This document shows, in pieces, positions 42,579 through 55,448 of a stretch of 64,000 nt of DNA. The notes under the pieces are model-generated. The model searched no databases and was not told where the DNA came from. It saw only the letters and a list, made by a program, of their open reading frames with translations. Origin of the DNA: a virus. Taxonomy: Duplodnaviria > Heunggongvirae > Uroviricota > Caudoviricetes. The stretch lies in IMG/VR virus record IMGVR_UViG_3300009093_000042, positions 1 through 64,000 of that record. One strand, written 5' to 3'. A program made the translations under genes and the position numbers. The stretch's first letter is position 1. Each line of letters starts with the position of its first letter.

Positions 42579-43016
42579 ATGAAAACATTCAGAAAAATCG
42601 CGGTAATCGTGCTGGTCGCTGCGGCCTTTGTGTCCTTGTCCCTCGTGGCCATGGCTCAAGCCACCAATGCTCCGGCTGGTAATACCGGTGGTTCGACGGC
42701 CCCGATCACTGATCCGACGCCTTTGTGGAACGCGCTCATCGCAGTCCTGGTGCCGGTCGCGGTCTGGGGGATTAAGAAGATCGTGCCCAGGATTCCGCCT
42801 GTGCTGCTGCCTATTGGGGCTACGGCGCTCGGTGTTCTGTCCAACTATCTTTTGACGCTGGCACACGCGTTGCCTCACACGTCATTGATGCTTGGCGCGC
42901 TCGCGGGTGCAGCAGGTGTCGGTGTTCGTGAAATCACGGACCAGGTGAAGCAAGTGACGGCAGGGCCTACCCCGCCTCCGATGCCACCGACTCCTCCGAC
43001 TCCTCCTGCATCGTAA
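42579..43016 (+). CDS. multi-TM membrane protein (holin-like or superinfection-exclusion candidate) with Pro-rich tail
   Basis: Three or four hydrophobic helices. Followed by a strong intrinsic terminator. Confidence 0.5.
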   Translation: MKTFRKIAVIVLVAAAFVSLSLVAMAQATNAPAGNTGGSTAPITDPTPLWNALIAVLVPVAVWGIKKIVPRIPPVLLPIGATALGVLSNYLLTLAHALPHTSLMLGALAGAAGVGVREITDQVKQVTAGPTPPPMPPTPPTPPAS

Positions 43017-43042
43017 TGAATTGCGGTATCGGTTCGGTAGAA

Positions 43043-43075
43043 GCGCCGGGGTGACTCCCCGGCGCTTTCTTTTAT
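43043..43075 (+). terminator. rho-independent terminator after plus-strand membrane-protein gene
   Basis: GCGCCGGGG-tgac-TCCCCGGCGC followed by TTTCTTTTAT. Confidence 0.7.
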
Positions 43076-43297: not shown

Positions 43298-45112
43298 TCA
43301 AGGCACTTTGACGCCGTATTTGAACTTCAAATAGTTCTCGACGTTGGTGATCTGCACAGTGGTCAGATTGCTGTGGTAAACGAGGAGTTCAGCGAGGTAC
43401 CCGAACCCTTCAAAATTCGCTCCGTTGTAGTCTGAACCAACTACCCACCGTGTCGGAGCTTGAGTTCCGGCGTTTCCTTGTACGGCCAAAACTCCGTTTG
43501 TTCTTATGATCGAGGTCGTGCTGTTTTCACAAAATGAGAATATGCGCCATTCGTAAATGGGAGATTGGGGCGTAGGGGCGTTCAAGCTTGTTCCTGCGTA
43601 TATTTGAGTAACGATACCGCCTTCGCCCAGAGCGCAGCCAAAGCGGTTACCTTCTGCGTTACCATCCAGAAACACGAATCGGCCAGGTCTCCCGTACCAG
43701 ACAATGAAAGCCCAGTTTGGCTGCGCTACAACAGAAAATGTTGGTGACGATAGAGTGTCTGCACCCGTGGCGGGTGAAGGTGTCCAATTCAAAGAAGGAA
43801 TGTTTCCAGGAACGTTATTTGGGTTTGCGTTGTAAATTGCGCTAGAAAGCCCGGCGTTCGTCATGCGCGGTACAAACAGTGATAGATCATTCCACCATCG
43901 AACCGGCTGTCCAAAAGGCGCAGGAGTGGTGTTCGTCAGTTCTTCGGAGTATTTTCCGTTGGAGCCTTCAAGCCACAGCACGCATCCTCCCTGGCTATTT
44001 GTTGGATTGAACCCTCCCACGGTAAGAGTGTAGTTGGTGCTGATCGGGTAATCGTCAACACGCGCAGTGAAAACCACGTTGCTGTCGCCCTGACCAAAAA
44101 CTTGAAAATAAAATTTAGCTCCGTATCCGGTTGGTATTCCGCTGATCGACTGGTGGGCCTCTTGCCAGTTTGTAGAGGTTCCGATGTAATAAACATGCCG
44201 GTAATAATTGGTCGCAGGAACCCATACGTTCACAACCCGGCTGGTATTAGCTAATCCCCAGTTTGTGGCGTAGTTGAAGTAAATCGCACCGGTCGGATTA
44301 AACACTTGAGCCGGGTACGTGAAATCGACGTAATAGTTGGTTGCTCCGTCGAAGGGAGCCACATTGGTCTGGCTTAAATCAATGCCGCTGGCTCCGCCAC
44401 CACTGTTCGCGGCTGAAATTGTAACGCTCGTGCCATTGTCAGTCAGCGTCACGTTTCCACCTGCACGCAAGCCTTTAATACCTGCGATTGGTGCATTTGA
44501 TGATCCGACCATGGAAATATCGGTGGGAGTTGTTGCCCAAGCTGAGTTAGTAATGCTCAGCAAGTACTGACTCAAAGTGGGGATGTCGCCTGCAACCAGG
44601 CTCCGAAAGGTTGGCAGCCCGCTTCCTGATGTCGGCCCGGCGAATACGGCATTTTGACTTTGAGAGGACAGCGTGTAAGAAAGCGCGGGCGTGGTTGTGG
44701 GAGTGCCGACTGAGGTCGTAAATAGCGGTGAAAGGTTACCTGACGAAAAACTGGTAACTGTGCCACCACTCCCTGCGGGCAGATCAGAAGACACGAGCGC
44801 ACGAAAAGAGGGCGGTCCCGTGCCGCCGACCGGACTGGCGAACACGAGGCCCGGCGATTGCAGTTGAAGCTGGAAGCTCAAGTGAGGCGTGGTCGTAGGC
44901 GTTGTCACCGTGACGCCAAACAGTCCGGCAAGCGGGTCCGCTGAAAAAGAGCTGACGCCTCCGCCGTTCGTATTGATCTCAAGGTAAGCTCTGGCGGAGG
45001 CGGAGTTCACTGACTTGTTAAATCCCTGTGCCCAGGTGCTCATCTGCTGAGCGCGCAGTGAAAGCGGGAGGGTGGCCAGGAGTGCAGCGAGGATCAGGCG
45101 CAGGATTTTCAT
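43298..45112 (-). CDS. tail fibre protein with signal-peptide-like N-terminus and Phage_fiber_2-like repeats
   Basis: Repeats VFASPVGGTGPPSFRALVSSDLP and VFAGPTSGSGLPTFRSLVAGDIP. Confidence 0.55.
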   Translation of the reverse strand: MKILRLILAALLATLPLSLRAQQMSTWAQGFNKSVNSASARAYLEINTNGGGVSSFSADPLAGLFGVTVTTPTTTPHLSFQLQLQSPGLVFASPVGGTGPPSFRALVSSDLPAGSGGTVTSFSSGNLSPLFTTSVGTPTTTPALSYTLSSQSQNAVFAGPTSGSGLPTFRSLVAGDIPTLSQYLLSITNSAWATTPTDISMVGSSNAPIAGIKGLRAGGNVTLTDNGTSVTISAANSGGGASGIDLSQTNVAPFDGATNYYVDFTYPAQVFNPTGAIYFNYATNWGLANTSRVVNVWVPATNYYRHVYYIGTSTNWQEAHQSISGIPTGYGAKFYFQVFGQGDSNVVFTARVDDYPISTNYTLTVGGFNPTNSQGGCVLWLEGSNGKYSEELTNTTPAPFGQPVRWWNDLSLFVPRMTNAGLSSAIYNANPNNVPGNIPSLNWTPSPATGADTLSSPTFSVVAQPNWAFIVWYGRPGRFVFLDGNAEGNRFGCALGEGGIVTQIYAGTSLNAPTPQSPIYEWRIFSFCENSTTSIIRTNGVLAVQGNAGTQAPTRWVVGSDYNGANFEGFGYLAELLVYHSNLTTVQITNVENYLKFKYGVKVP

Positions 45113-46688: not shown

Positions 46689-49600
46689 TCAGTGATATAC
46701 CAAAAATGGATTCGTGACGAAATCGCGCTGGAGGAAGTAAATGTCCCCGCTCGAATAGTCGATGGCGATGGAGCTGATATTCGCTCCCGTCGTGAACTCA
46801 CACACAATGGTTTTTCCGACCGGGTCGATCACCGTGACTTCGCCATTCTGGGCCGCTGCAATGATCAGTCCCGACACCGGGTTGTACTTGACATAAACTT
46901 TGTTGAAGACGTTGGAGACGTTCGTGAACGTGTCCACCACAGCGTAGGTGTTGGGATCGAACGAAACAATCGGGTTCGTTGATCCGTCCACCAGGCAGAA
47001 GTAAACCAGCCCTGTCGCCGGGACATAATCCACTTCAAAGTTCGAGTTGACCAGGAAGCTGTTGTTGTTGAGGGTCAGCGCAGGGAGCGCATAAAACAAC
47101 GTGGAGTTGGTCGGCTTCAGGATCAACTGACCAGGCAATCCGAATACGCCGGGCGTTGTTGCAGCAGAAATGGTCGTGGCAACGTCGTTGGTGATCGTGT
47201 TAGTGTGCGGGTCGATCTCGATGATGTGGATTTTGTGATCGCTGTTATTTCCCGCCACGCCGTATATCTTGTCCTGCGCCGCGCTGTAGTAGTAATTCGT
47301 GAGGAAGAACGAGTTGACTGGTTGACCGATCTCAGTGACCACGTTTCCACTGGTGTCGAATACCAACACACCTGCGGACCCGGTGACGAAGAACGTTTGG
47401 GTCGTCGGTGCAAAGGCGCTTCCATCACCGTCCATGTCCCATTCCACGTCGCACGCTGTTTGGGCGAGGACAGTGTTGGTCGATGAGTCGATGAACGTCA
47501 TGATTCCATCATTGGACCGCGTGACGCCGATGATTCTCACTGCGGCATTACGGCTCATCAGGATTTCGCCGTCAACGTTTCCAGTATTATCGAATTGTGT
47601 CACGAACACCGGACACGTCGGCGTGGGCGGAGCGGGCGAGGAGGAGCATGGACTCATAATGGTTCCGTAGGTTACGAAAGCAGGCAGCGTTCCGTCAGAC
47701 ACGGTGAACGATCCATTGAGGATAATGTCTTCGGTCCGATAGGACGTGGTTGCGGTTAGTTTGTTTGAAAACGGCTGAGGATTGCTCAGCGTGTCGTTGG
47801 AGCTGTAAATCTGTGACTCGTGCTGATAGCCGTAGGCCGTTCCCCAACTGCTCATGGTCGCCATCCAGCCGCCCGGAGTGGTTGGATAATCGGTGCCGGA
47901 GGTACCGAACTTCGTGGTCACGACGGAGCCTGCGCCGACTGTCAAACGATACAGTGACGTGTGGAATCGAGTGAGATTCACTTCGCTGATGAACAACTGG
48001 CGCGCCGTTCCCTTCTGGTTGTCACGGATGGCATTGCTCCAGTCAAACAGCAACAGCCAGGAACTCGGGCTGCCGGGCAGTGTGTGCGGCAGATAGAAAT
48101 CGAACGTGTCGGTCTGGCTGAAGTTCGCGCCGGTCTGGTCTGCACAGAGCTTGCCCTGGAAGACGATGTCGCCAACCGTGATGACCACGTTGAACCCAAC
48201 GAAGCTCGTATCGACTTTGCCGATGTTGCCAGACGTGACGCTCAATCGGTAAAAGCCGGGGAGCATCTGGTTGTTGATCTCGAACGCGATTTGGCCGTTG
48301 TTCTTCAGCGCCACCACTGGAGGCGTCTGGGCCAGGCCGAACGTGTTGGGCTGCACCCACGCGTTCACCGTGTTCGTCCCGGACAGGTCAATCACCGTTT
48401 CCTCATTTGCGTAAAGATAGATCGGCGCTGAGGTCGCGGTGCCGGTGTAGGTGCCTGAGTAAACCACGCCGCTGGTATTGACCGAGAGCTGTTTGTGCAG
48501 CGTTGCATCGCTTAGTTCCACTTCCGCGCCAGTCGGCTGGTACGACCCGTTCAAGCTGAAAATCTTTTCCGTGACGAAGGACACGTTTCCGGCCTCGGTG
48601 TTGGCCAAACTGATCTGCCAGACAAAGCCGTCGTCCCCCTTTCTCCAGATGCGATCTCGGCAGGGGTTGGTGGCTTGCAGGGGATTGGGCCACGGAGAGC
48701 CAGTGCCGGTCGAGGCGAGGGTGCCTGCGATGCCAGAGATGGTGCTGCCACTTTCGATCAGCGTCAGCACAAAGCCTGACGGATTGTCAAAGAGCCAGAC
48801 CTTGTTGACGCCAGGATAGTTTCCCTGCCAGGTGGACACTGCCACCGTCCCGTCCGCCGTGAGGGTGTCCCAGACACTTCCCAGAACTTGTTTTGGAGGC
48901 AGCGTGTTGCCGCCGCCTACGCCGGTTTCTTTGTAGCGTGATTGCGCGTCGTAGCGCGCCAGGTAATCGTAGCGCTGAACCCACGCGAGATTGTCCGTAA
49001 TGATCGAAGTGGGCAGTTGGTCAGGGATCACGTAACCGCTCGGCAGCACTTTGACTGCGTAGTGATCGTACGTGTTGACCGATTGCAACCACGTGGGCCG
49101 GTAAAGGCAGGCGGTTGGGCTTGGATTGTGATAGCGCGCCAGCGTCAATTCGTCCTGGGCTTTCGTCACATTCCACAGGCGCAGGTCCTGGATGTCAAAA
49201 GGCGAATTCTGGCAGCTCACTGTCAGATGGTACGGCGTTTCAAAGTCGATCAAGCTGGTCACTGAGATCGTTTGCACCGTGAGGCTGCCGGTCGAGTTCC
49301 AGTAATAAACCGTGAGCGTTTGAACGCCGTCGAATGACCACGCGAAGTAGCTCCATTTCTGGTCGAACACCTGGAACGCTTTGAGATTCACCGTCCCATC
49401 AGAGTAGGTCAGATAGAAATTCAAACGAGGCGTCGTGATTGCTCCCGAGAGTGTGATCTTCAGCGGGCCGGACAAAAGGATGGTCTGTTCGCTGGTGTAG
49501 CTGTTCAAGCCGCGAATCCAGAAACCACCGGAGAACATTTGGCCGAAGCCACGGGCCACCGGGCTGTTCAATAGCAATCCCGGTTGAGCTGCGAGATAAT

Positions 49601-51989
49601 TGCCGCGAACCGGATCAAACTTACGGTCGCCCGAAGCCAGCCCGTCGATGAAAGCGTTTCCAGCGTAGATCGAGTGATCTTCCACCAGAATGGCGTCGAG
49701 CGGCTGCTCATTGAAAGGATACCAGAGCGCCAGACCGTTGCGGTGATGTTTTCCAAAGAACTTCGGAGCGTCCGCCACCAGAACGCCTTGAACCAATCCG
49801 AAATGGTAAAGCTGCCAGCCCGGCTGCATCACACCGTCGAGACCGCCCTGTAATGTGCCGCTGGACGGACGAGTACCGGCGAGATTCAAAAATGTGCCGC
49901 TGAAGGCGATAGCGCGTTGGCCGGGAACGTAATCGTCCAGACTGCGCTCGGCAGTGACAAAGCGAGGAGGATAAGGTCCAGGTACCACGACCTGCACGTC
50001 GTACTGCGCGCCGGTCTGACTGACGACCGAAGCCGTCTGACCCAACCGAATGGTTTCCAGGTCCGGCACTGCCGGGCTGTAGTCGTTCAGGTCAACCAGC
50101 TCGCCGCCGCCCACCAGGCTGCGTCGCCATGGATACTCGTCCGGCATATCCATGGCTGGATCATCCAGAAAATCTTCCGGGCGCTCCTGATAACCGATCT
50201 GGATGCAGTTGGTTCCCGGATTCGAGCGAACGACTTCGGTCGAAGTCGGTTCGAAGACGACGTTGACGATGGTGCCTGTCTGAACCGTGCCGGGGAATCG
50301 AAGTATCCAGCTCGCGTTGCGATAGTCGAATGTGCCGGAAGCCAGCAGGTCGCTGGTCTTCAGCGTCAGGAAGCCGGAGTTCGTGATCGACTGTTCCTGA
50401 TACATGTCAATCGTCCCGGTCTGGAATTGGACGCTGTACGGAGGCGTCGGAAAGTCCGTGATCGTACCGCTGTAAATCGAAGTGCCGCTGTGGGTGATGA
50501 ACAGTTGATCCTTCTCGCAGAAGGCAGCGTAGCCGACCTGGTCTTCGATGAGATAGCCGACGTTGACTTGGCGCGGCGTACGGGTCGCGGGCCGGACTTC
50601 TTCCATCGCGGCCACCACTTGCGCGCCTGCCGCGCTGAGCGCGTCCTGGTCAAATTGACGGCTGGTCAGGTCGGCCTGCACGCGGGGAGAAACAATCGTC
50701 AGGTTGCCGTTCGTGTTGGTGCGCGTGATCCAATCGGCGGTGATCAGTTCCTGTCTGATGGACCCGGACATCCACGGACGAAACGGAGAAACGGCGGTTG
50801 CGCCGAAGTTCGCCGAGGTCGGGTTGTTCACCAGGTCCTTGTTGGCCGTGGCCACGACCGTTCCGAACTGCTCCAGCGCGTGGTCGAAATCCATCGTCAA
50901 CCCGAGATCGAAATAGCTGGTGCGGTATTTGATTGCCGAGAGCCGGTCGGTGATGGAGATGATGCGCGACGTGCCATTGTCGATGGACGTGAAGTTGATT
51001 TCCAGGCCGTTGAAGCTCGACCCAGACGAGATTGCCTTGAACAGCAGCCCGCTGCCGGGCGGTTCAACTGACGCCTGCTTTTCCGGGCCGCCGCCCACCA
51101 GGATGTAAGGCGCGCCTGCCGGATCGGGATCGGTTGGTGCCGTTCCCACCACGCTGACACTGACAAACGGATTGAACCCGTTCACAATATCGGTGTAAAA
51201 ACGCGTGTCGCTTTGTCCAAAGCGCGCTGAGGCAGTGCCGGTCCAAGTGAAAAAGGGACCGTCGTTCAGTACCCACGGATCGTAAAAGTTGTCGCGGGCC
51301 TGCTTCGGGAAATAGTCAGGAATCGTGGCGAAGTCCTGGTTGTTTCGCGGATCACCGATGTCGTTGGCGATACGCGGGCTGAGTCGCCCCCAAAGCGGAC
51401 TCATTCGCACGTCGTCAAAACCCAGAAGCCTGCCGAGCGTTTCGAAGGATTGCGCCGTGCCTTTGAACTGCAAACGCGGGAACCAGGTCGCCAGGAGACG
51501 GCGCGCATCACTCTGCGCGTTGTCCGGGTCCATCGCGGCTGTCTGGTAAAGCACCGCGCCAACGGTTTCAGCCAAGTAACCCAGGATGTTGGCGTCAACC
51601 AGCCGGAGCATGTCCACTCCGTACGCTGCCGAGATCAGGACGTGGTTTTCGTCAAGCTGGAGCTGGTCGGCAGCCCAGGTGAGAAGTGCTGGATCGTTCG
51701 CAGCCGGAGTATCGCTCTGGAAATCCAGCGAGCGGTTGTAAACTTTTCCCTGCGGCGACTGCACCTGGCAGAGGACCACGTTGTTGACGGGAGTACCGGA
51801 ATTGTCAGTCTCCGGCAGTCCGTTTGCCGTGACCAGAAGTTCGAGCTTGGAGACGTACGATCGCGTGTCGTCGATGCGATCCTGATAGCCGCCAATGACC
51901 GCCTGAATCAACCCTTGTTCATCAAGGTCGATTATGCCTTCGGGCAGAAGGTCATACAGGTAATCCTCAATTAGATTCTGCAAGCTCAC
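46689..51989 (-). CDS. giant virion protein (1766 aa); internal-core or baseplate-fibre candidate
   Basis: Uninterrupted 5.3-kb ORF. Its position before the fibre genes resembles T7 gp16-gp17 order. Confidence 0.65.
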   Translation of the reverse strand: MSLQNLIEDYLYDLLPEGIIDLDEQGLIQAVIGGYQDRIDDTRSYVSKLELLVTANGLPETDNSGTPVNNVVLCQVQSPQGKVYNRSLDFQSDTPAANDPALLTWAADQLQLDENHVLISAAYGVDMLRLVDANILGYLAETVGAVLYQTAAMDPDNAQSDARRLLATWFPRLQFKGTAQSFETLGRLLGFDDVRMSPLWGRLSPRIANDIGDPRNNQDFATIPDYFPKQARDNFYDPWVLNDGPFFTWTGTASARFGQSDTRFYTDIVNGFNPFVSVSVVGTAPTDPDPAGAPYILVGGGPEKQASVEPPGSGLLFKAISSGSSFNGLEINFTSIDNGTSRIISITDRLSAIKYRTSYFDLGLTMDFDHALEQFGTVVATANKDLVNNPTSANFGATAVSPFRPWMSGSIRQELITADWITRTNTNGNLTIVSPRVQADLTSRQFDQDALSAAGAQVVAAMEEVRPATRTPRQVNVGYLIEDQVGYAAFCEKDQLFITHSGTSIYSGTITDFPTPPYSVQFQTGTIDMYQEQSITNSGFLTLKTSDLLASGTFDYRNASWILRFPGTVQTGTIVNVVFEPTSTEVVRSNPGTNCIQIGYQERPEDFLDDPAMDMPDEYPWRRSLVGGGELVDLNDYSPAVPDLETIRLGQTASVVSQTGAQYDVQVVVPGPYPPRFVTAERSLDDYVPGQRAIAFSGTFLNLAGTRPSSGTLQGGLDGVMQPGWQLYHFGLVQGVLVADAPKFFGKHHRNGLALWYPFNEQPLDAILVEDHSIYAGNAFIDGLASGDRKFDPVRGNYLAAQPGLLLNSPVARGFGQMFSGGFWIRGLNSYTSEQTILLSGPLKITLSGAITTPRLNFYLTYSDGTVNLKAFQVFDQKWSYFAWSFDGVQTLTVYYWNSTGSLTVQTISVTSLIDFETPYHLTVSCQNSPFDIQDLRLWNVTKAQDELTLARYHNPSPTACLYRPTWLQSVNTYDHYAVKVLPSGYVIPDQLPTSIITDNLAWVQRYDYLARYDAQSRYKETGVGGGNTLPPKQVLGSVWDTLTADGTVAVSTWQGNYPGVNKVWLFDNPSGFVLTLIESGSTISGIAGTLASTGTGSPWPNPLQATNPCRDRIWRKGDDGFVWQISLANTEAGNVSFVTEKIFSLNGSYQPTGAEVELSDATLHKQLSVNTSGVVYSGTYTGTATSAPIYLYANEETVIDLSGTNTVNAWVQPNTFGLAQTPPVVALKNNGQIAFEINNQMLPGFYRLSVTSGNIGKVDTSFVGFNVVITVGDIVFQGKLCADQTGANFSQTDTFDFYLPHTLPGSPSSWLLLFDWSNAIRDNQKGTARQLFISEVNLTRFHTSLYRLTVGAGSVVTTKFGTSGTDYPTTPGGWMATMSSWGTAYGYQHESQIYSSNDTLSNPQPFSNKLTATTSYRTEDIILNGSFTVSDGTLPAFVTYGTIMSPCSSSPAPPTPTCPVFVTQFDNTGNVDGEILMSRNAAVRIIGVTRSNDGIMTFIDSSTNTVLAQTACDVEWDMDGDGSAFAPTTQTFFVTGSAGVLVFDTSGNVVTEIGQPVNSFFLTNYYYSAAQDKIYGVAGNNSDHKIHIIEIDPHTNTITNDVATTISAATTPGVFGLPGQLILKPTNSTLFYALPALTLNNNSFLVNSNFEVDYVPATGLVYFCLVDGSTNPIVSFDPNTYAVVDTFTNVSNVFNKVYVKYNPVSGLIIAAAQNGEVTVIDPVGKTIVCEFTTGANISSIAIDYSSGDIYFLQRDFVTNPFLVYH

Positions 51990-52009: not shown

Positions 52010-54598
52010 TTAACTGACATAGATTTTTCGACCTTTGGCGATGAACCAGGTCGAACCGGCGTTTCCGTAGGTGGTGGAGTAAAGCCGATAGAGCTTTCCG
52101 TTAAAAGCAATTCTGTAACCGGTGTTGAGTTTTGCCCCGTAACCGGTGGCCGTTTGCTGAAGTCCCCGTTTCTGCCATGGTGTCGGATCGTGAATCAATT
52201 CCTTTCGGTCCGCATAAATCCGTGGAAATTGACCGTTGGGAGAAGTTTCCACGTCCGCATCAGTAAAAAGCTTGTAACCATTTCCGTCGCTCGCAACGTC
52301 TTTGGCATCGTCAGCTTCCGCCTCCTCGTCGAACCCTTCCTGCACTTGAGCCAGCTTTCCGTGATACAGGCTGCCTTTGGGCAACGCGGTGGCTTCGTCA
52401 CTGTAGGCTTCTTCATCGAGCAACGGTTGAAGTCCCGAAAACCAGAATTCCACAATGTGGCCATCCGGCAGCACCGCATTGAACAAATCCTCGTCAGCCC
52501 GCCCCCACCACTTGCTGTTCTCGGCCAGGACGTGCATCGCGGCAGCAACGTTGTGACCGTCGCCCAGGGGCGTTAGGAGGATGTCGAGGTCTTTTTCTGA
52601 TTCACCGTGCCGATCCACACTTCCGACGATTTCTGCTTCATAGCCTACCGCTTCCAGCGCCGGGCGAACCATTTGAAGCCACGTTTCCGCCTGCTGGCGC
52701 GTCCACGGTGTAGCTTCATGCGTTCCCGGAGCTTTATTAGCCGTGTAGTCAGAAAGAGAGGACTCTCCAACAGATTTTGAAGCGTTCATCATGTACTGAT
52801 AAGCGTACTTCAAAAATTGCTTTTGGTTTTCCGGGGTTAAGCTATTCCAGAAAACTGGACGACTCGACGGTGACTGTAAAATTTTCATCGCTCCGTCAAA
52901 GCCGTGTTTTTCTATTTTTCTTGCAATAAAACCCTTGGCAAAAGCCATCACTTCATGAGGATCGTTGAAATAGCCTTTTTCGCGAAAATCCGGCTTCTGC
53001 TTTTGTTTATGATAGCTGGCCACCATCTTAGGAATGCTGCCCGGTCTCATGCGGCCCATCTGGCCTCGGTGTACAAGTTCATGCTGGATCATCCGCCGCA
53101 GATAGGATAGGAGGGTATCATCATTGCCTCGGGCCATCCATTGCGGCATACGGATGAGGATTCGGTTATGCACGAAGCCAAAAGCGGCGGCGGGAGAGCT
53201 GGACGGGAGAAAGCTTAATTCTTCCGTTTTCACTTTTTTCAGCGCACTCAGCCAGTTAATTTTTCCTTCGCTGTTATCAACTTCCTGCTGAGCTTTTTTA
53301 ATCTGCTGGAGAGCGAGCTGAGAAAGCCTTTCCACTTCTTCCTCTTTGGGTTCCACAACGTCTTCTGTGATCTGTTCCATCTCGATGTTTGGCTTACCGA
53401 GAAACAGTTTCGTTTTGGCTTTAGTTAGGCTGCTGAAGATCACAGACTTCACCAGGAATCGGGCATTGGTGTGCTCATCTGGTGCCATGAGGCGTTTGCC
53501 AACCAACTCGCGGCAGGTGCCCTTGGTCACGTAGGCCACGGTCATGTGCGGGTGGTATTCCGGGTACGTGTCCGTGCATTCCAGTTCCGCACTGATGCGA
53601 GCATTCAATTTGAAAAGCCCTTCGCCGGAGATGTCGAATTTCACCACATCGAACTTCTCATTTTCAAACAGCGAGATTGCTCCCACTTCGATCTCGAACG
53701 GCTCGGTTTGTTCGATGATCTTCAGAAGTTCCGGGCTTGGGTCTTTTTCGTGGAGTCCGAATTTAACCGTCACGTGGACTTCGTCCTCGCGCCCAAAACC
53801 CTCCGGGTCCTCCGGGTCGGTGTAGAGCTTATCGTCGGTGATGAACATCCGGCTGAACTGCTGCACTGCGTCCACGATGTCTGGCGACGCCGGGGCCATG
53901 ACACAGGAAAACTTCCGGGCCTCCATGATGCTCTCGATCTGCGCGTCCACGCCGCCCTGGTCGGGGTAAAGCCATTCGCTCAGCATCTCAGGAGTAATCC
54001 TTTCGACAATGCCGGAGGTATCGACCGCCTGATCAGCGCCAGTATCTTCAAACCATTCCGCGCCGCTCATATCGCGGGCGTCTTCAAACAGACCGCGCAA
54101 GCGCTCGTCTTCAATGAACTCCTCGTCGAGATCGGGAAACTTTTGCTTCAGGTTGACGAGGAATTCCTGGCGGTAGTGGTGCTTCCAGGCTTCGTCGCGT
54201 TTCAGCGATTCCACTGTGCGGTATTCTTCTTCGTCCAGCAGGCCGGAGGTTTTCAGCTTCTTGATCTGTTCGAACAGGCTGGCCGCCATGTCCGAATCCA
54301 ACTGGCCGAGTGACGATTCCGGTATGCCGACGATGACTGCGTTGAAGTTGGGGCCGGTGCTTGGGACGATGACGGGATAGTTCTTGATGAGGTAGCGGGC
54401 GTTGGCGCGGTCGGCGGTGTTGCCGGTATAGTCACTGAACTCGACGAGCTTCCAGACTTTGTGCTCGGGATCGTAAATCAGATTCTCATCCAGGAAGGCG
54501 CGCACTTTTTCCGGGTCCACGTCCCGAAGTTCACGCATGAAATCCGCGCTTTCTTGGTCGTCGCTTTCAATCAGTCGCCGCTTGGTAAGGTTTTTCAT
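52010..54598 (-). CDS. multidomain protein with 2H phosphoesterase (LigT-like) signature, HExxH motif and Pol-beta-type nucleotidyltransferase motif
   Basis: EVHVTVKFGLH and HPHMTVAYV form a pair of H-x-T-x motifs. MIQHELVHRGQ is the HExxH motif. IVGSVDRHGESEKDLDILL is a G[SG]..DhDh NTase motif. Confidence 0.6.
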   Translation of the reverse strand: MKNLTKRRLIESDDQESADFMRELRDVDPEKVRAFLDENLIYDPEHKVWKLVEFSDYTGNTADRANARYLIKNYPVIVPSTGPNFNAVIVGIPESSLGQLDSDMAASLFEQIKKLKTSGLLDEEEYRTVESLKRDEAWKHHYRQEFLVNLKQKFPDLDEEFIEDERLRGLFEDARDMSGAEWFEDTGADQAVDTSGIVERITPEMLSEWLYPDQGGVDAQIESIMEARKFSCVMAPASPDIVDAVQQFSRMFITDDKLYTDPEDPEGFGREDEVHVTVKFGLHEKDPSPELLKIIEQTEPFEIEVGAISLFENEKFDVVKFDISGEGLFKLNARISAELECTDTYPEYHPHMTVAYVTKGTCRELVGKRLMAPDEHTNARFLVKSVIFSSLTKAKTKLFLGKPNIEMEQITEDVVEPKEEEVERLSQLALQQIKKAQQEVDNSEGKINWLSALKKVKTEELSFLPSSSPAAAFGFVHNRILIRMPQWMARGNDDTLLSYLRRMIQHELVHRGQMGRMRPGSIPKMVASYHKQKQKPDFREKGYFNDPHEVMAFAKGFIARKIEKHGFDGAMKILQSPSSRPVFWNSLTPENQKQFLKYAYQYMMNASKSVGESSLSDYTANKAPGTHEATPWTRQQAETWLQMVRPALEAVGYEAEIVGSVDRHGESEKDLDILLTPLGDGHNVAAAMHVLAENSKWWGRADEDLFNAVLPDGHIVEFWFSGLQPLLDEEAYSDEATALPKGSLYHGKLAQVQEGFDEEAEADDAKDVASDGNGYKLFTDADVETSPNGQFPRIYADRKELIHDPTPWQKRGLQQTATGYGAKLNTGYRIAFNGKLYRLYSTTYGNAGSTWFIAKGRKIYVS

Positions 54599-55068
54599 GG
54601 CCAGTTAGTCCCCGGAGGCACGTACTGCGGCGGAACAGAGGTCACTGTCTCCGCGAAGTATTCGGGTCGGTTCACCGTGCCCCACATCGCTATAAAAGCA
54701 TTTCTCCACCGAATCACGTCGTTCGTCCCGATGTAAACGTATTCCGAAAAGGAATCAGGACCGCCCACGTCCACGGAGAATCGTCCCCATGGATATGCGT
54801 CCATGTACAACTGGATGGTATCAAGATCGGATACACCTTGACCAGCAAAGACGTTCGAATCGCCATCGCCCAACTCCGGTCCTAGTGGAGCCATCCGTAA
54901 CTCAGCGTTAATGATCCAGGAACCTCTCCCCACGAGGAAGTTGATCTGAGCGGTCGAGAGAGGTTTGTACTGTCCCGTCTGGATCAGCTTTTCAATGTAG
55001 CTGGCCGCGAGACCGAAAACTTGTAAATTGACTGCCATTATTGTTGTCCCAATATCCGCTGACGCCAC
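54595..55068 (-). CDS. hypothetical protein (157 aa)
   Basis: Minus ORF. Confidence 0.5.
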   Translation of the reverse strand: MASADIGTTIMAVNLQVFGLAASYIEKLIQTGQYKPLSTAQINFLVGRGSWIINAELRMAPLGPELGDGDSNVFAGQGVSDLDTIQLYMDAYPWGRFSVDVGGPDSFSEYVYIGTNDVIRWRNAFIAMWGTVNRPEYFAETVTSVPPQYVPPGTNWP

Positions 55069-55448
55069 GATCTGAAGTCCCTGCTCTTGATCATTTTCTT
55101 GGCATCGGCCAGCTCAGTGGTGTCCCCGCGTTTTACTAGCACTCCGTCCGGGCTGTCAGGAGTGACCTTAAATTCATAAATGACGTATTCATCCACGGTT
55201 GACTTCTGACCCCACCCAAGATGATGAACCTTGTGGTTGTAAACCACGATGAAGTTTCCGTATTTGTAGATTTTCTTGGTGCCGTGGAATCGCGTGGCCC
55301 TGCGGTTGAAGAAAAGAGGTTCGGCTGCCTTGATCTCATCCAGAGTGTAGATTCTGTCCTCTGGTTGAGCAGAGAGCATTTTCAAATCGTCTGAGCCAGA
55401 CATGTCATCGTCTGCTTCCGTGACGAACGCTAGAATTTCCCTTATCAC
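55038..55448 (-). CDS. hypothetical protein (136 aa)
   Basis: Minus ORF. Confidence 0.45.
   Translation of the reverse strand: MIREILAFVTEADDDMSGSDDLKMLSAQPEDRIYTLDEIKAAEPLFFNRRATRFHGTKKIYKYGNFIVVYNHKVHHLGWGQKSTVDEYVIYEFKVTPDSPDGVLVKRGDTTELADAKKMIKSRDFRSWRQRILGQQ

Follow-up and report, generated by a model that had tools for sequence, protein, structure and literature searches.

A probable polyvalent counter-defense protein of an uncultured phage joins an Acb1-like 2H domain to exchangeable cassettes

What is the function of a phage protein that carries the signatures of a 2H phosphoesterase, an HExxH metallopeptidase, and a nucleotidyltransferase (NTase) in one polypeptide? The question is raised by an open reading frame (ORF) of 862 residues in IMG/VR record IMGVR_UViG_3300009093_000042 (Duplodnaviria; Heunggongvirae; Uroviricota; Caudoviricetes), of which we analyzed positions 1-64,000, a 64,000-nucleotide stretch that we call the window. 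The host genome is that of an uncultured jumbo phage known from a contig of ~245 kb, and the ORF occupies positions 52010..54598 on the minus strand, with its ATG at 54598 and its stop codon (52010-52012) following the 862 codons. An earlier note, made from the letters and their reading frames, had suggested RNA end healing and sealing, or the synthesis and degradation of nucleotide signals, and considered either to be an unusual accessory function for a phage. A class of such proteins has already been described, however, under the name of polyvalent proteins (Iyer et al. 2017, PMC5512222). We consider it probable that the 862-residue protein is a phage-type polyvalent counter-defense protein, and the best-supported of its predicted activities, and the most likely, is Acb1-like cleavage of cyclic-oligonucleotide signals. 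It is a new variant within a known class and no new kind of enzyme.

The four motifs that drew attention to the ORF are all present in its uninterrupted frame. On the minus strand they are HVTV (2H motif 1; residues 275-278, 53765-53776), HMTV (2H motif 2; residues 351-354, 53537-53548), HELVH (residues 506-510, 53069-53083), and the NTase motif, made up of GS (residues 659-660, 52619-52624) and DLD (residues 670-672, 52583-52591). Two details of their arrangement had to be revised: the H-x-T-x motifs lie 76 residues apart rather than about 85, and the NTase motif, which had been placed at the C terminus, is followed by ~140 further residues that comprise an acidic linker and a separate domain. 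The frame is not an assembly fusion, because the identical protein, called on three contigs, recurs on contigs of different samples (ENA ERZ27252312, which is 245,196 bp long, and Logan SRR6056503). Short motifs are weak evidence alone (by our estimate, about two matches to H-x-[ST] are expected by chance in a protein of this size), and we therefore used profiles, family conservation, and predicted structure for each of them. The weight of the motifs rests on the match of the 2H domain to a Pfam profile, on family-wide invariance, and on the NTase fold search. Module boundaries were drawn from a BLAST and phmmer comparison with 23 relatives (designated here by P numbers).

The 2H phosphoesterase domain comprises residues 222-412 (53363..53935, minus strand), is supported by Pfam, a profile search of PDB sequences, and conservation, and contains the pairs H275/T277 and H351/T353. 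The whole protein matched PF13563 with an E value of 2.3e-9, and the isolated domain scored 41.7 bits on PF13563 (cut-off 27) and 23.5 bits on LigT_PEase (cut-off 23.3). When IMG/VR was scanned with the family alignment, at least 499 viral loci matched, and we took 65 non-identical 2H domains from the best 80 of these. H275, T277, and H351 do not vary among the 65 viral relatives, and T353 is conserved in 64 of them; the catalytic residues of the domain are intact. Profile matching thus confirms residues 222-412 as a member of the 2H superfamily, as the earlier note had called them.

Which 2H enzymes does the domain most resemble? When PDB sequences were ranked with the family profile, Acb1 came first (9q2g, E 2e-4; 7t26, E 2e-3; 9q2y, E 7e-3), followed by the LigT-like PH0099 (0.01) and Bacillus subtilis YjcG (0.06). 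Both HxT motifs aligned to those of Acb1, the second reading '(Y)PEYhPHlTvaY' in the family and 'YPDYRPHITLSY' in Acb1. The Pfam family Acb1 (PF23474) was matched at E<=1e-3 by 53 of the 65 viral domains, all of which matched PF13563, and one relative (P0024) reached 37.5 bits on it. The only match in NCBIfam was to TIGR02258 (RNA 2',3'-cyclic phosphodiesterase) and was sub-threshold (E 1e-6; 28 bits, cut-off 65.7); PADLOC gave no match. Because PF13563 and the PDB ranking support 2H/Acb1 kinship, yet the score on Pfam Acb1 is sub-threshold, we call the domain Acb1-like and not a certified Acb1 member. Acb1 has an HxT/HxT tetrad and cleaves 3'3'-cyclic GMP-AMP (cGAMP) and related signals without metal (PMC9117128); the degradation of immune nucleotides by phage 2H domains was predicted (PMC5512222) before it was demonstrated (PMC9117128). 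By analogy, the tetrad may cleave the cyclic-oligonucleotide signals of cyclic oligonucleotide-based antiphage signaling systems (CBASS), and possibly those of type III CRISPR systems, without a metal ion, and other 2',3'-cyclic or 2'-5' phosphodiesters would be alternative substrates. Of the activities that the note had considered, signal degradation fits these results, the best solved relatives being Acb1 and most of the viral relatives matching Pfam Acb1.

Residues 625-725 (52424..52726, minus strand) form a minimal NTase of the Pol-beta superfamily, with G659-S660, D670, D672, and E717 (52448-52450) as its signature residues. An exhaustive HMMER search with residues 440-760 against 1.84 billion representatives gave 45 hits, ~30 of which align to residues ~629-721. 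These relatives are mostly standalone proteins of 93-125 residues; within large proteins, the module occurs with ART-PolyVal and NUDIX (P0034), MuF (P0049), and ddrB-ParB (P0054). An alignment of 36 sequences shows no variation at W632, G659, D670, or D672, only Ser or Gly at position 660, and an acidic residue (Asp or Glu) at position 717 throughout; the resulting pattern, hG[GS]...DhD...[DE], is the signature of the Pol-beta superfamily. The consensus of the family (P0025-P0066) reads WT..A..FL...P.L...GY.A.IVGSVA..G.S..DLDILLTP...LPDGR.VDF.F. An AlphaFold2 model of residues 605-862, made from 46 aligned sequences, has a predicted local distance difference test (pLDDT) score of >90 over a helix-strand-strand-helix-strand-strand-strand NTase core. 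The best PDB match of the family profile is DNA polymerase beta, which is exact on the catalytic motif with an E value of only 0.25. The NTase module matched no Pfam family, NTP_transf_2 (PF01909) included, either in the query (E<=1) or in 33 family members (E<=0.01), and tblastn found no match to it in 50,697 GenBank phage records.

The GS/DxD region, on whose fold the note had staked its assignment, is thus predicted to be an NTase with a conserved catalytic triad, and we regard the assignment as confirmed by the predicted fold and the triad together. The module is a bare palm of ~100 residues, which alone is neither a polymerase, nor a cyclase of the CD-NTase (cGAS/DncV-like nucleotidyltransferase) type, nor a ligase. 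The suggestion of signal synthesis is unsupported, as the helical domain of CD-NTases is missing. A second, MNT-like module (TGSRVHG…EDSDFDVVVLY…VDMNPI), with no more than a weak match to NTP_transf_2 (E 0.003), separates the 2H domain from the mini-NTase in P0004 (residues ~440-540) and P0007; P0020 has this module after the 2H domain and lacks the mini-NTase. A standalone copy of the mini-NTase (locus L011, 2312-2596) lies directly downstream of a TnpB/Cas12f-like gene. No Pfam HEPN match is recorded at the surveyed loci, a result that comes from recorded annotation rather than from a dedicated HEPN search and from contigs that, where they carry standalone copies, are very short.

The presence of a 2H domain and an NTase in one protein could mean that they form a coupled pair for RNA 3'-end repair, in which the 2H domain would open the 2',3'-cyclic phosphate ends left by metal-independent host RNases (for example on tRNA) and the NTase would add nucleotides back in a CCA-type reaction. 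Three Pol-beta-type NTases are indeed fused to the 2H clade, namely the mini-NTase (P0001-P0005, P0007), the GS...DSDFD module (P0004, P0007, P0020), and, in P0024, a genuine CCA-adding enzyme (PolyA_pol, E 2e-30). The sub-threshold TIGR02258 match is also in line with such a role, and RNA repair genes are common in jumbo phages (PMC7824862). However, none of the best 80 viral 2H loci carries a copy of the mini-NTase module: ~56 of them encode standalone 2H proteins of 165-245 residues, the size of Acb1, and ~24 have the domain within larger ORFs (up to >3600 residues), two of them as 2H-HExxH fusions. This count also led us to reject an obligatory 2H-NTase pair; the fusion does not mark a fixed functional unit. 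The NTase is a bare palm without an RNA-binding body or neck, the nearest solved relatives of the 2H domain are Acb1 and not the cyclic phosphodiesterases (CPDases) of tRNA ligases, and the 2H domains of polyvalent proteins were never linked to RNA ligases (PMC5512222). In the precomputed annotation of the source contig and its four syntenic relatives, none of the Pfam RNA-ligase, polynucleotide-kinase, or 3'-phosphatase families occurs within 8-10 kb of the gene. Healing and sealing is further disfavored in that a Pol-beta NTase is no ligase. We therefore consider RNA repair to be unlikely.

The same two domains could instead belong to a set of toxins for host shutoff, in which the 2H domain would act as a Usb1-like RNase on host RNA, the NTase would block tRNAs or proteins by nucleotidylation in the manner of MenT or NTox45, and the peptidase would break down host proteins. 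Such a set would be in line with the proposal of Iyer et al. that polyvalent 2H domains are RNases and with the relation that they draw between polyvalent NTases and NTox45 (PMC5512222), as well as with the occurrence of standalone copies of the C-terminal module (described below) in arrays of small early-type genes. Against this, the 2H profile is closest to Acb1, and in the fold search Pol X and terminal uridylyltransferases (TUTases) rank far above MenT-like toxins. No immunity or antitoxin gene was recognized alongside the gene, and toxicity is only predicted. We judge host shutoff to be slightly less probable even than RNA repair.

Between the 2H domain and the NTase lies a cassette of 198 residues (residues 413-610; 52769..53362, minus strand) that consists of a charged helical linker and the HExxH module, with H506, E507, H510, Q513, and E549 (52952-52954). 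HExxHxxQ is invariant in 15 related segments, and a Glu 39 residues past the second His (E549) is conserved in 14 of them, within the motif 'P.E.MA.A'. The AlphaFold2 model of the segment (pLDDT 84.9) places strands at 11-17, 23-27, and 30-36 of the segment, followed by the HELVH helix (44-67) and then by a helix (98-126) that carries E549; the same order of elements has been described for the metallopeptidases of polyvalent proteins (PMC5512222). A Foldseek search with this model returned a best E value of 1.0, and ~20 of the 50 top matches were zincins of seven families: MATCAP, BlaR1, M61 peptidase, jannalysin and selecase (minigluzincins), SPRTN, PprI, and the ArdC metalloprotease. This enrichment may be due in part to the HExxH letters themselves. 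The module of the query has no Pfam match, and its profile found nothing significant among PDB sequences; one relative matched SprT-like (E 0.002) and another eCIS_core (E 0.003). Pfam MPTase-PolyVal was unmatched by the query (E<=1) and by 13 family members (E<=0.01). The zincin-like character that the note had read from HELVH is therefore plausible by conservation and model, but a significant match to a known zincin was not obtained, and we regard the module as a probable, not proven, minimal gluzincin metallopeptidase. In three further proteins (P0027, P0030, and P0042), most of the length is taken up by the HExxH module in tandem, with two to four copies each, and architectures with several metallopeptidases are known in polyvalent proteins (PMC5512222).

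The cassette also bears on how the protein may have been assembled. Over residues 1-412, P0002 is 87% identical to the query, from which it differs by one clean insertion of 198 residues in the query that corresponds to the HExxH cassette; the cassette is missing from both of the closest relatives, P0002 and P0003. Its GC content (0.47, against 0.553 for the window, with a standard deviation [sd] of 0.028) makes it the stretch of 615 bp with the lowest GC in the 64 kb, ~3 sd below the mean. The combination of the lowest GC content and a clean indel relative to an 87%-identical homolog suggests that the cassette was gained recently from a source of lower GC. More generally, the core made up of module A (see below) and the 2H domain is constant across relatives, and the remaining modules vary. 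N-terminal GNAT domains are found in P0012-P0014, the HExxH module recurs in P0008, P0021, and P0023, and the mini-NTase and C-terminal module recur in P0002-P0005; other variable segments are unassigned. P0005 (N-terminal ~140 residues) and P0006 (residues ~430-550) have in common a segment with a Cys...His...Asp-like pattern (…C(D/G)…A..L…H(S/F)(Y/F)…YD(P/S)(T/Q)…), which by eye could be a papain- or transglutaminase-like peptidase.

Two further modules, which the note had overlooked, were delimited by the comparison with relatives. Module A, a family-specific N-terminal domain (residues 1-221; 53936..54598, minus strand), is found in ~20 relatives and is duplicated in P0008, P0015, P0018, and P0019. 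Its invariant residues are mostly aromatic (several Trp and Phe, with W49, W138, and W182 among the Trp), together with N66 and D122, and do not look catalytic; it had no match in Pfam, PHROGs, NCBIfam, or PADLOC, nor in the profile search of PDB sequences. At the other end of the protein, an acidic linker (residues 726-769; 52292..52423, minus strand) is marked by a drop in AlphaFold2 confidence (block-mean pLDDT ~60-67, and <50 at residues 751-756) and leads to a beta-rich C-terminal module (residues 770-862; 52013..52291, minus strand) that matches phrog_3436 (E 1.5e-17). With high confidence, AlphaFold2 predicts it to be a four-stranded beta meander, and its profile found nothing significant among PDB sequences. 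As a standalone protein of ~87 residues, for which there is no Pfam family, the module occurs in at least 718 clusters, and the gene is also present in cultured phages of the Vequintavirinae and Stephanstirmvirinae, amid arrays of small unidirectional genes. Three standalone copies that we inspected, in Cronobacter phage CR3, Klebsiella phage phi1_175008, and a metagenomic contig (loci L001, 2447-2686; L002, 2483-2725; L008, 5001-5252), lie within such arrays of small same-strand genes of an early or accessory type.

Does the position of the gene point to its role? The window is phage-like in that it encodes a terminase large subunit, a helicase, a replication-initiator-like protein, and proteins resembling tail fibers, with nearly all of its genes on one strand. 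Cultured relatives are essentially lacking. We found no close relative of the whole 862-residue protein in IMG/VR. In four other contigs of 80-250 kb, a homologous gene stands in the same position, in the order Ig-domain protein, GT9 glycosyltransferase, helicase, a protein of ~230-370 residues (with a helix-turn-helix or replication-initiator-like match in two loci), two smaller ORFs, the 2H protein, and a giant ORF of 1100-2000 residues. In four of the five loci the giant ORF comes immediately after the 2H gene, and most loci have a protein of ~520-540 residues next. This conserved position raises the possibility that the protein is a structural component of the tail or virion, whose enzyme-like domains have degenerated or work on the cell envelope at entry: the gene is directly upstream of, and probably cotranscribed with, the giant ORF and a PKD-domain protein, and there are tail-fiber-like genes elsewhere in the window. 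On the other side, the 2H, NTase, and HExxH modules each retain a full and conserved set of catalytic residues, no domain corresponds to an enzyme known to act on the envelope, and the upstream neighbors are the helicase and the replication-initiator-like gene. A structural role is, in our estimation, very improbable.

We return to the reading of the protein as a phage-type polyvalent counter-defense protein. In one polypeptide of a phage contig it combines a phosphodiesterase, a peptidase-like module, and an NTase, and it fits the polyvalent class because of its architecture, the exchange of its modules, their solo counterparts, and the modules that it has in common with ART-PolyVal, MuF, and ddrB-ParB proteins. 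The mini-NTase, the 2H domain, and the C-terminal module all occur solo, and the 2H domain also occurs within ORFs of >3000 residues. Among polyvalent proteins, the zincin-like metallopeptidase (MPTase) is a hub domain, the 2H domain is specific to the phage type (Iyer et al. 2017, PMC5512222), and Pol-beta NTases were found only in the versions from conjugative elements (PMC5512222). We propose that module A and the Acb1-like 2H domain would serve as a chassis at a fixed genome position, to which exchangeable cassettes would be attached; here these would be the zincin-like metallopeptidase, the ~100-residue Pol-X-like NTase, and the small beta domain that elsewhere is a separate gene. The metallopeptidase might cut the polyprotein at its charged linkers to release the modules, or might attack a host protein. 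The NTase could transfer a nucleotide to a host protein or to an RNA 3' end, and the C-terminal domain may be an independent small effector. The protein might also be delivered with the virion, for which its place beside large unannotated ORFs and a PKD-domain protein is indirect evidence at most; injection is unsupported here, because the family includes no virion-targeting fusion.

Several observations weigh against this reading. The activity of every module is a prediction, and the query, at 18.8 bits (E 0.0014), does not reach the curated cut-off of Pfam Acb1 (PF23474), which is 27. A share of ~35% of the protein is unexplained, since neither module A nor the C-terminal module has known relatives; the genes next to the ORF are almost all unannotated; and no MuF, portal, or other virion-targeting fusion is found in this family.

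The ORF is tightly packed against these neighbors. Its start overlaps the stop codon of an upstream ORF of 157 residues (54595-55068) by 4 nucleotides, and this ORF is preceded by another of 136 residues (55038-55448); both are on the minus strand and without a family match. Relatives keep an ORF of ~140-150 residues that overlaps the gene start and is preceded by an ORF of variable size, and either of the small upstream ORFs might be a functional partner of the protein. The 3' end of the ORF is separated by 21 nucleotides from the start of the giant ORF, which in the window encodes 1766 residues (46689-51989, minus strand) and matches nothing in PHROGs, Pfam, or NCBIfam. Its counterpart is present in all syntenic relatives (1138-1982 residues) and directly downstream in most; a baseplate or fiber role for it is only a guess. 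Further away, a strong GC-rich hairpin of 12 bp with a T-run after it (43040-43068) lies between the convergent genes 42579-43016 (plus strand) and 43298-45112 (minus strand) and is probably the terminator of the long minus-strand block that holds the 862-residue ORF. Promoter and terminator patterns were not more frequent around the gene than in shuffled controls. In one syntenic locus (L010, 2643-5498), an intein or homing-endonuclease insertion (Hom_end_hint, Hom_end, LAGLIDADG_3) interrupts the helicase that lies upstream of the 2H gene, which gives this helicase 951 instead of ~603 residues.

The polyvalent class, the 2H superfamily, and the NTase superfamily were known already. What is new is the combination of a 2H domain with a Pol-beta NTase in a phage-type protein; a mini-NTase family that is outside Pfam and that tblastn did not match in the GenBank phage collection we searched; the two unassigned modules, A and the C-terminal one; and cassette indels that the comparison of close relatives shows directly. 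Our literature search found no paper that names Acb1 together with polyvalent proteins. If the proposed reading is correct, an Acb1-like nuclease is part of a multi-effector polyprotein, which suggests that some phages bundle signal degradation with other effectors in one product. The relatives document the gain and loss of cassettes, putatively encoding effectors, among close homologs, and the polyvalent concept is extended in that a Pol-beta NTase now occurs in a phage-type protein. As a more speculative extension, which we think rather doubtful, mostly jumbo-sized uncultured phages may swap effectors on the A+2H chassis, with the mini-NTase and phrog_3436 as unrecognized anti-defense or host-takeover families that have targets of their own. 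The mini-NTase, phrog_3436, and module A are in any case three unannotated families that would be cheap to test in defense-system panels.

Three known systems are closest to the protein or to parts of it. Acb1 (T4 gp57B, Erwinia phage FBB1; PMC9117128; 7t26, 9q2g) has in common with it the 2H superfamily, the HxT/HxT catalytic tetrad, and the second motif '(Y)P(E/D)Y.PH.T.(A/S)Y'. However, Acb1 is a standalone protein of ~150 residues with a C-terminal lid, whereas here the domain is embedded in 862 residues and the likeness is one of sequence profile. The mini-NTase shares with the palm of family X DNA polymerases, and with minimal NTases of the MNT, LnuA, and NTox45 type, the hG[GS]-x9-D-h-D motif, a third acidic residue on a later strand, and the alpha-beta-beta-alpha-beta core. 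It differs in having only ~100 residues, without fingers, thumb, or 8-kDa domains, and so is no polymerase alone; it also has no match to Pfam NTP_transf_2 and no recognized HEPN partner, and the family is known from metagenomes only.

The closest overall parallel is with the polyvalent proteins (PMC5512222), in which, as here, several unrelated catalytic domains occupy one phage polypeptide, a metallopeptidase-type module with HExxH plus Glu occurs alongside a phage-type 2H domain, and modules are swapped among relatives and also occur solo; the NTase module itself is common to ART-PolyVal, MuF, and ddrB-ParB proteins. Unlike the polyvalent proteins described to date, the 862-residue protein has the 2H domain and a Pol-beta NTase together, has no link to MuF, portal, or virion RNA polymerase, and carries an HExxH module without a Pfam MPTase-PolyVal match, and modules A and C-terminal are, as far as can be tested, not among the described polyvalent domains. 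The swapping of effectors that we tentatively suggest for the A+2H chassis could be likened to the exchange of tips in polymorphic toxins.

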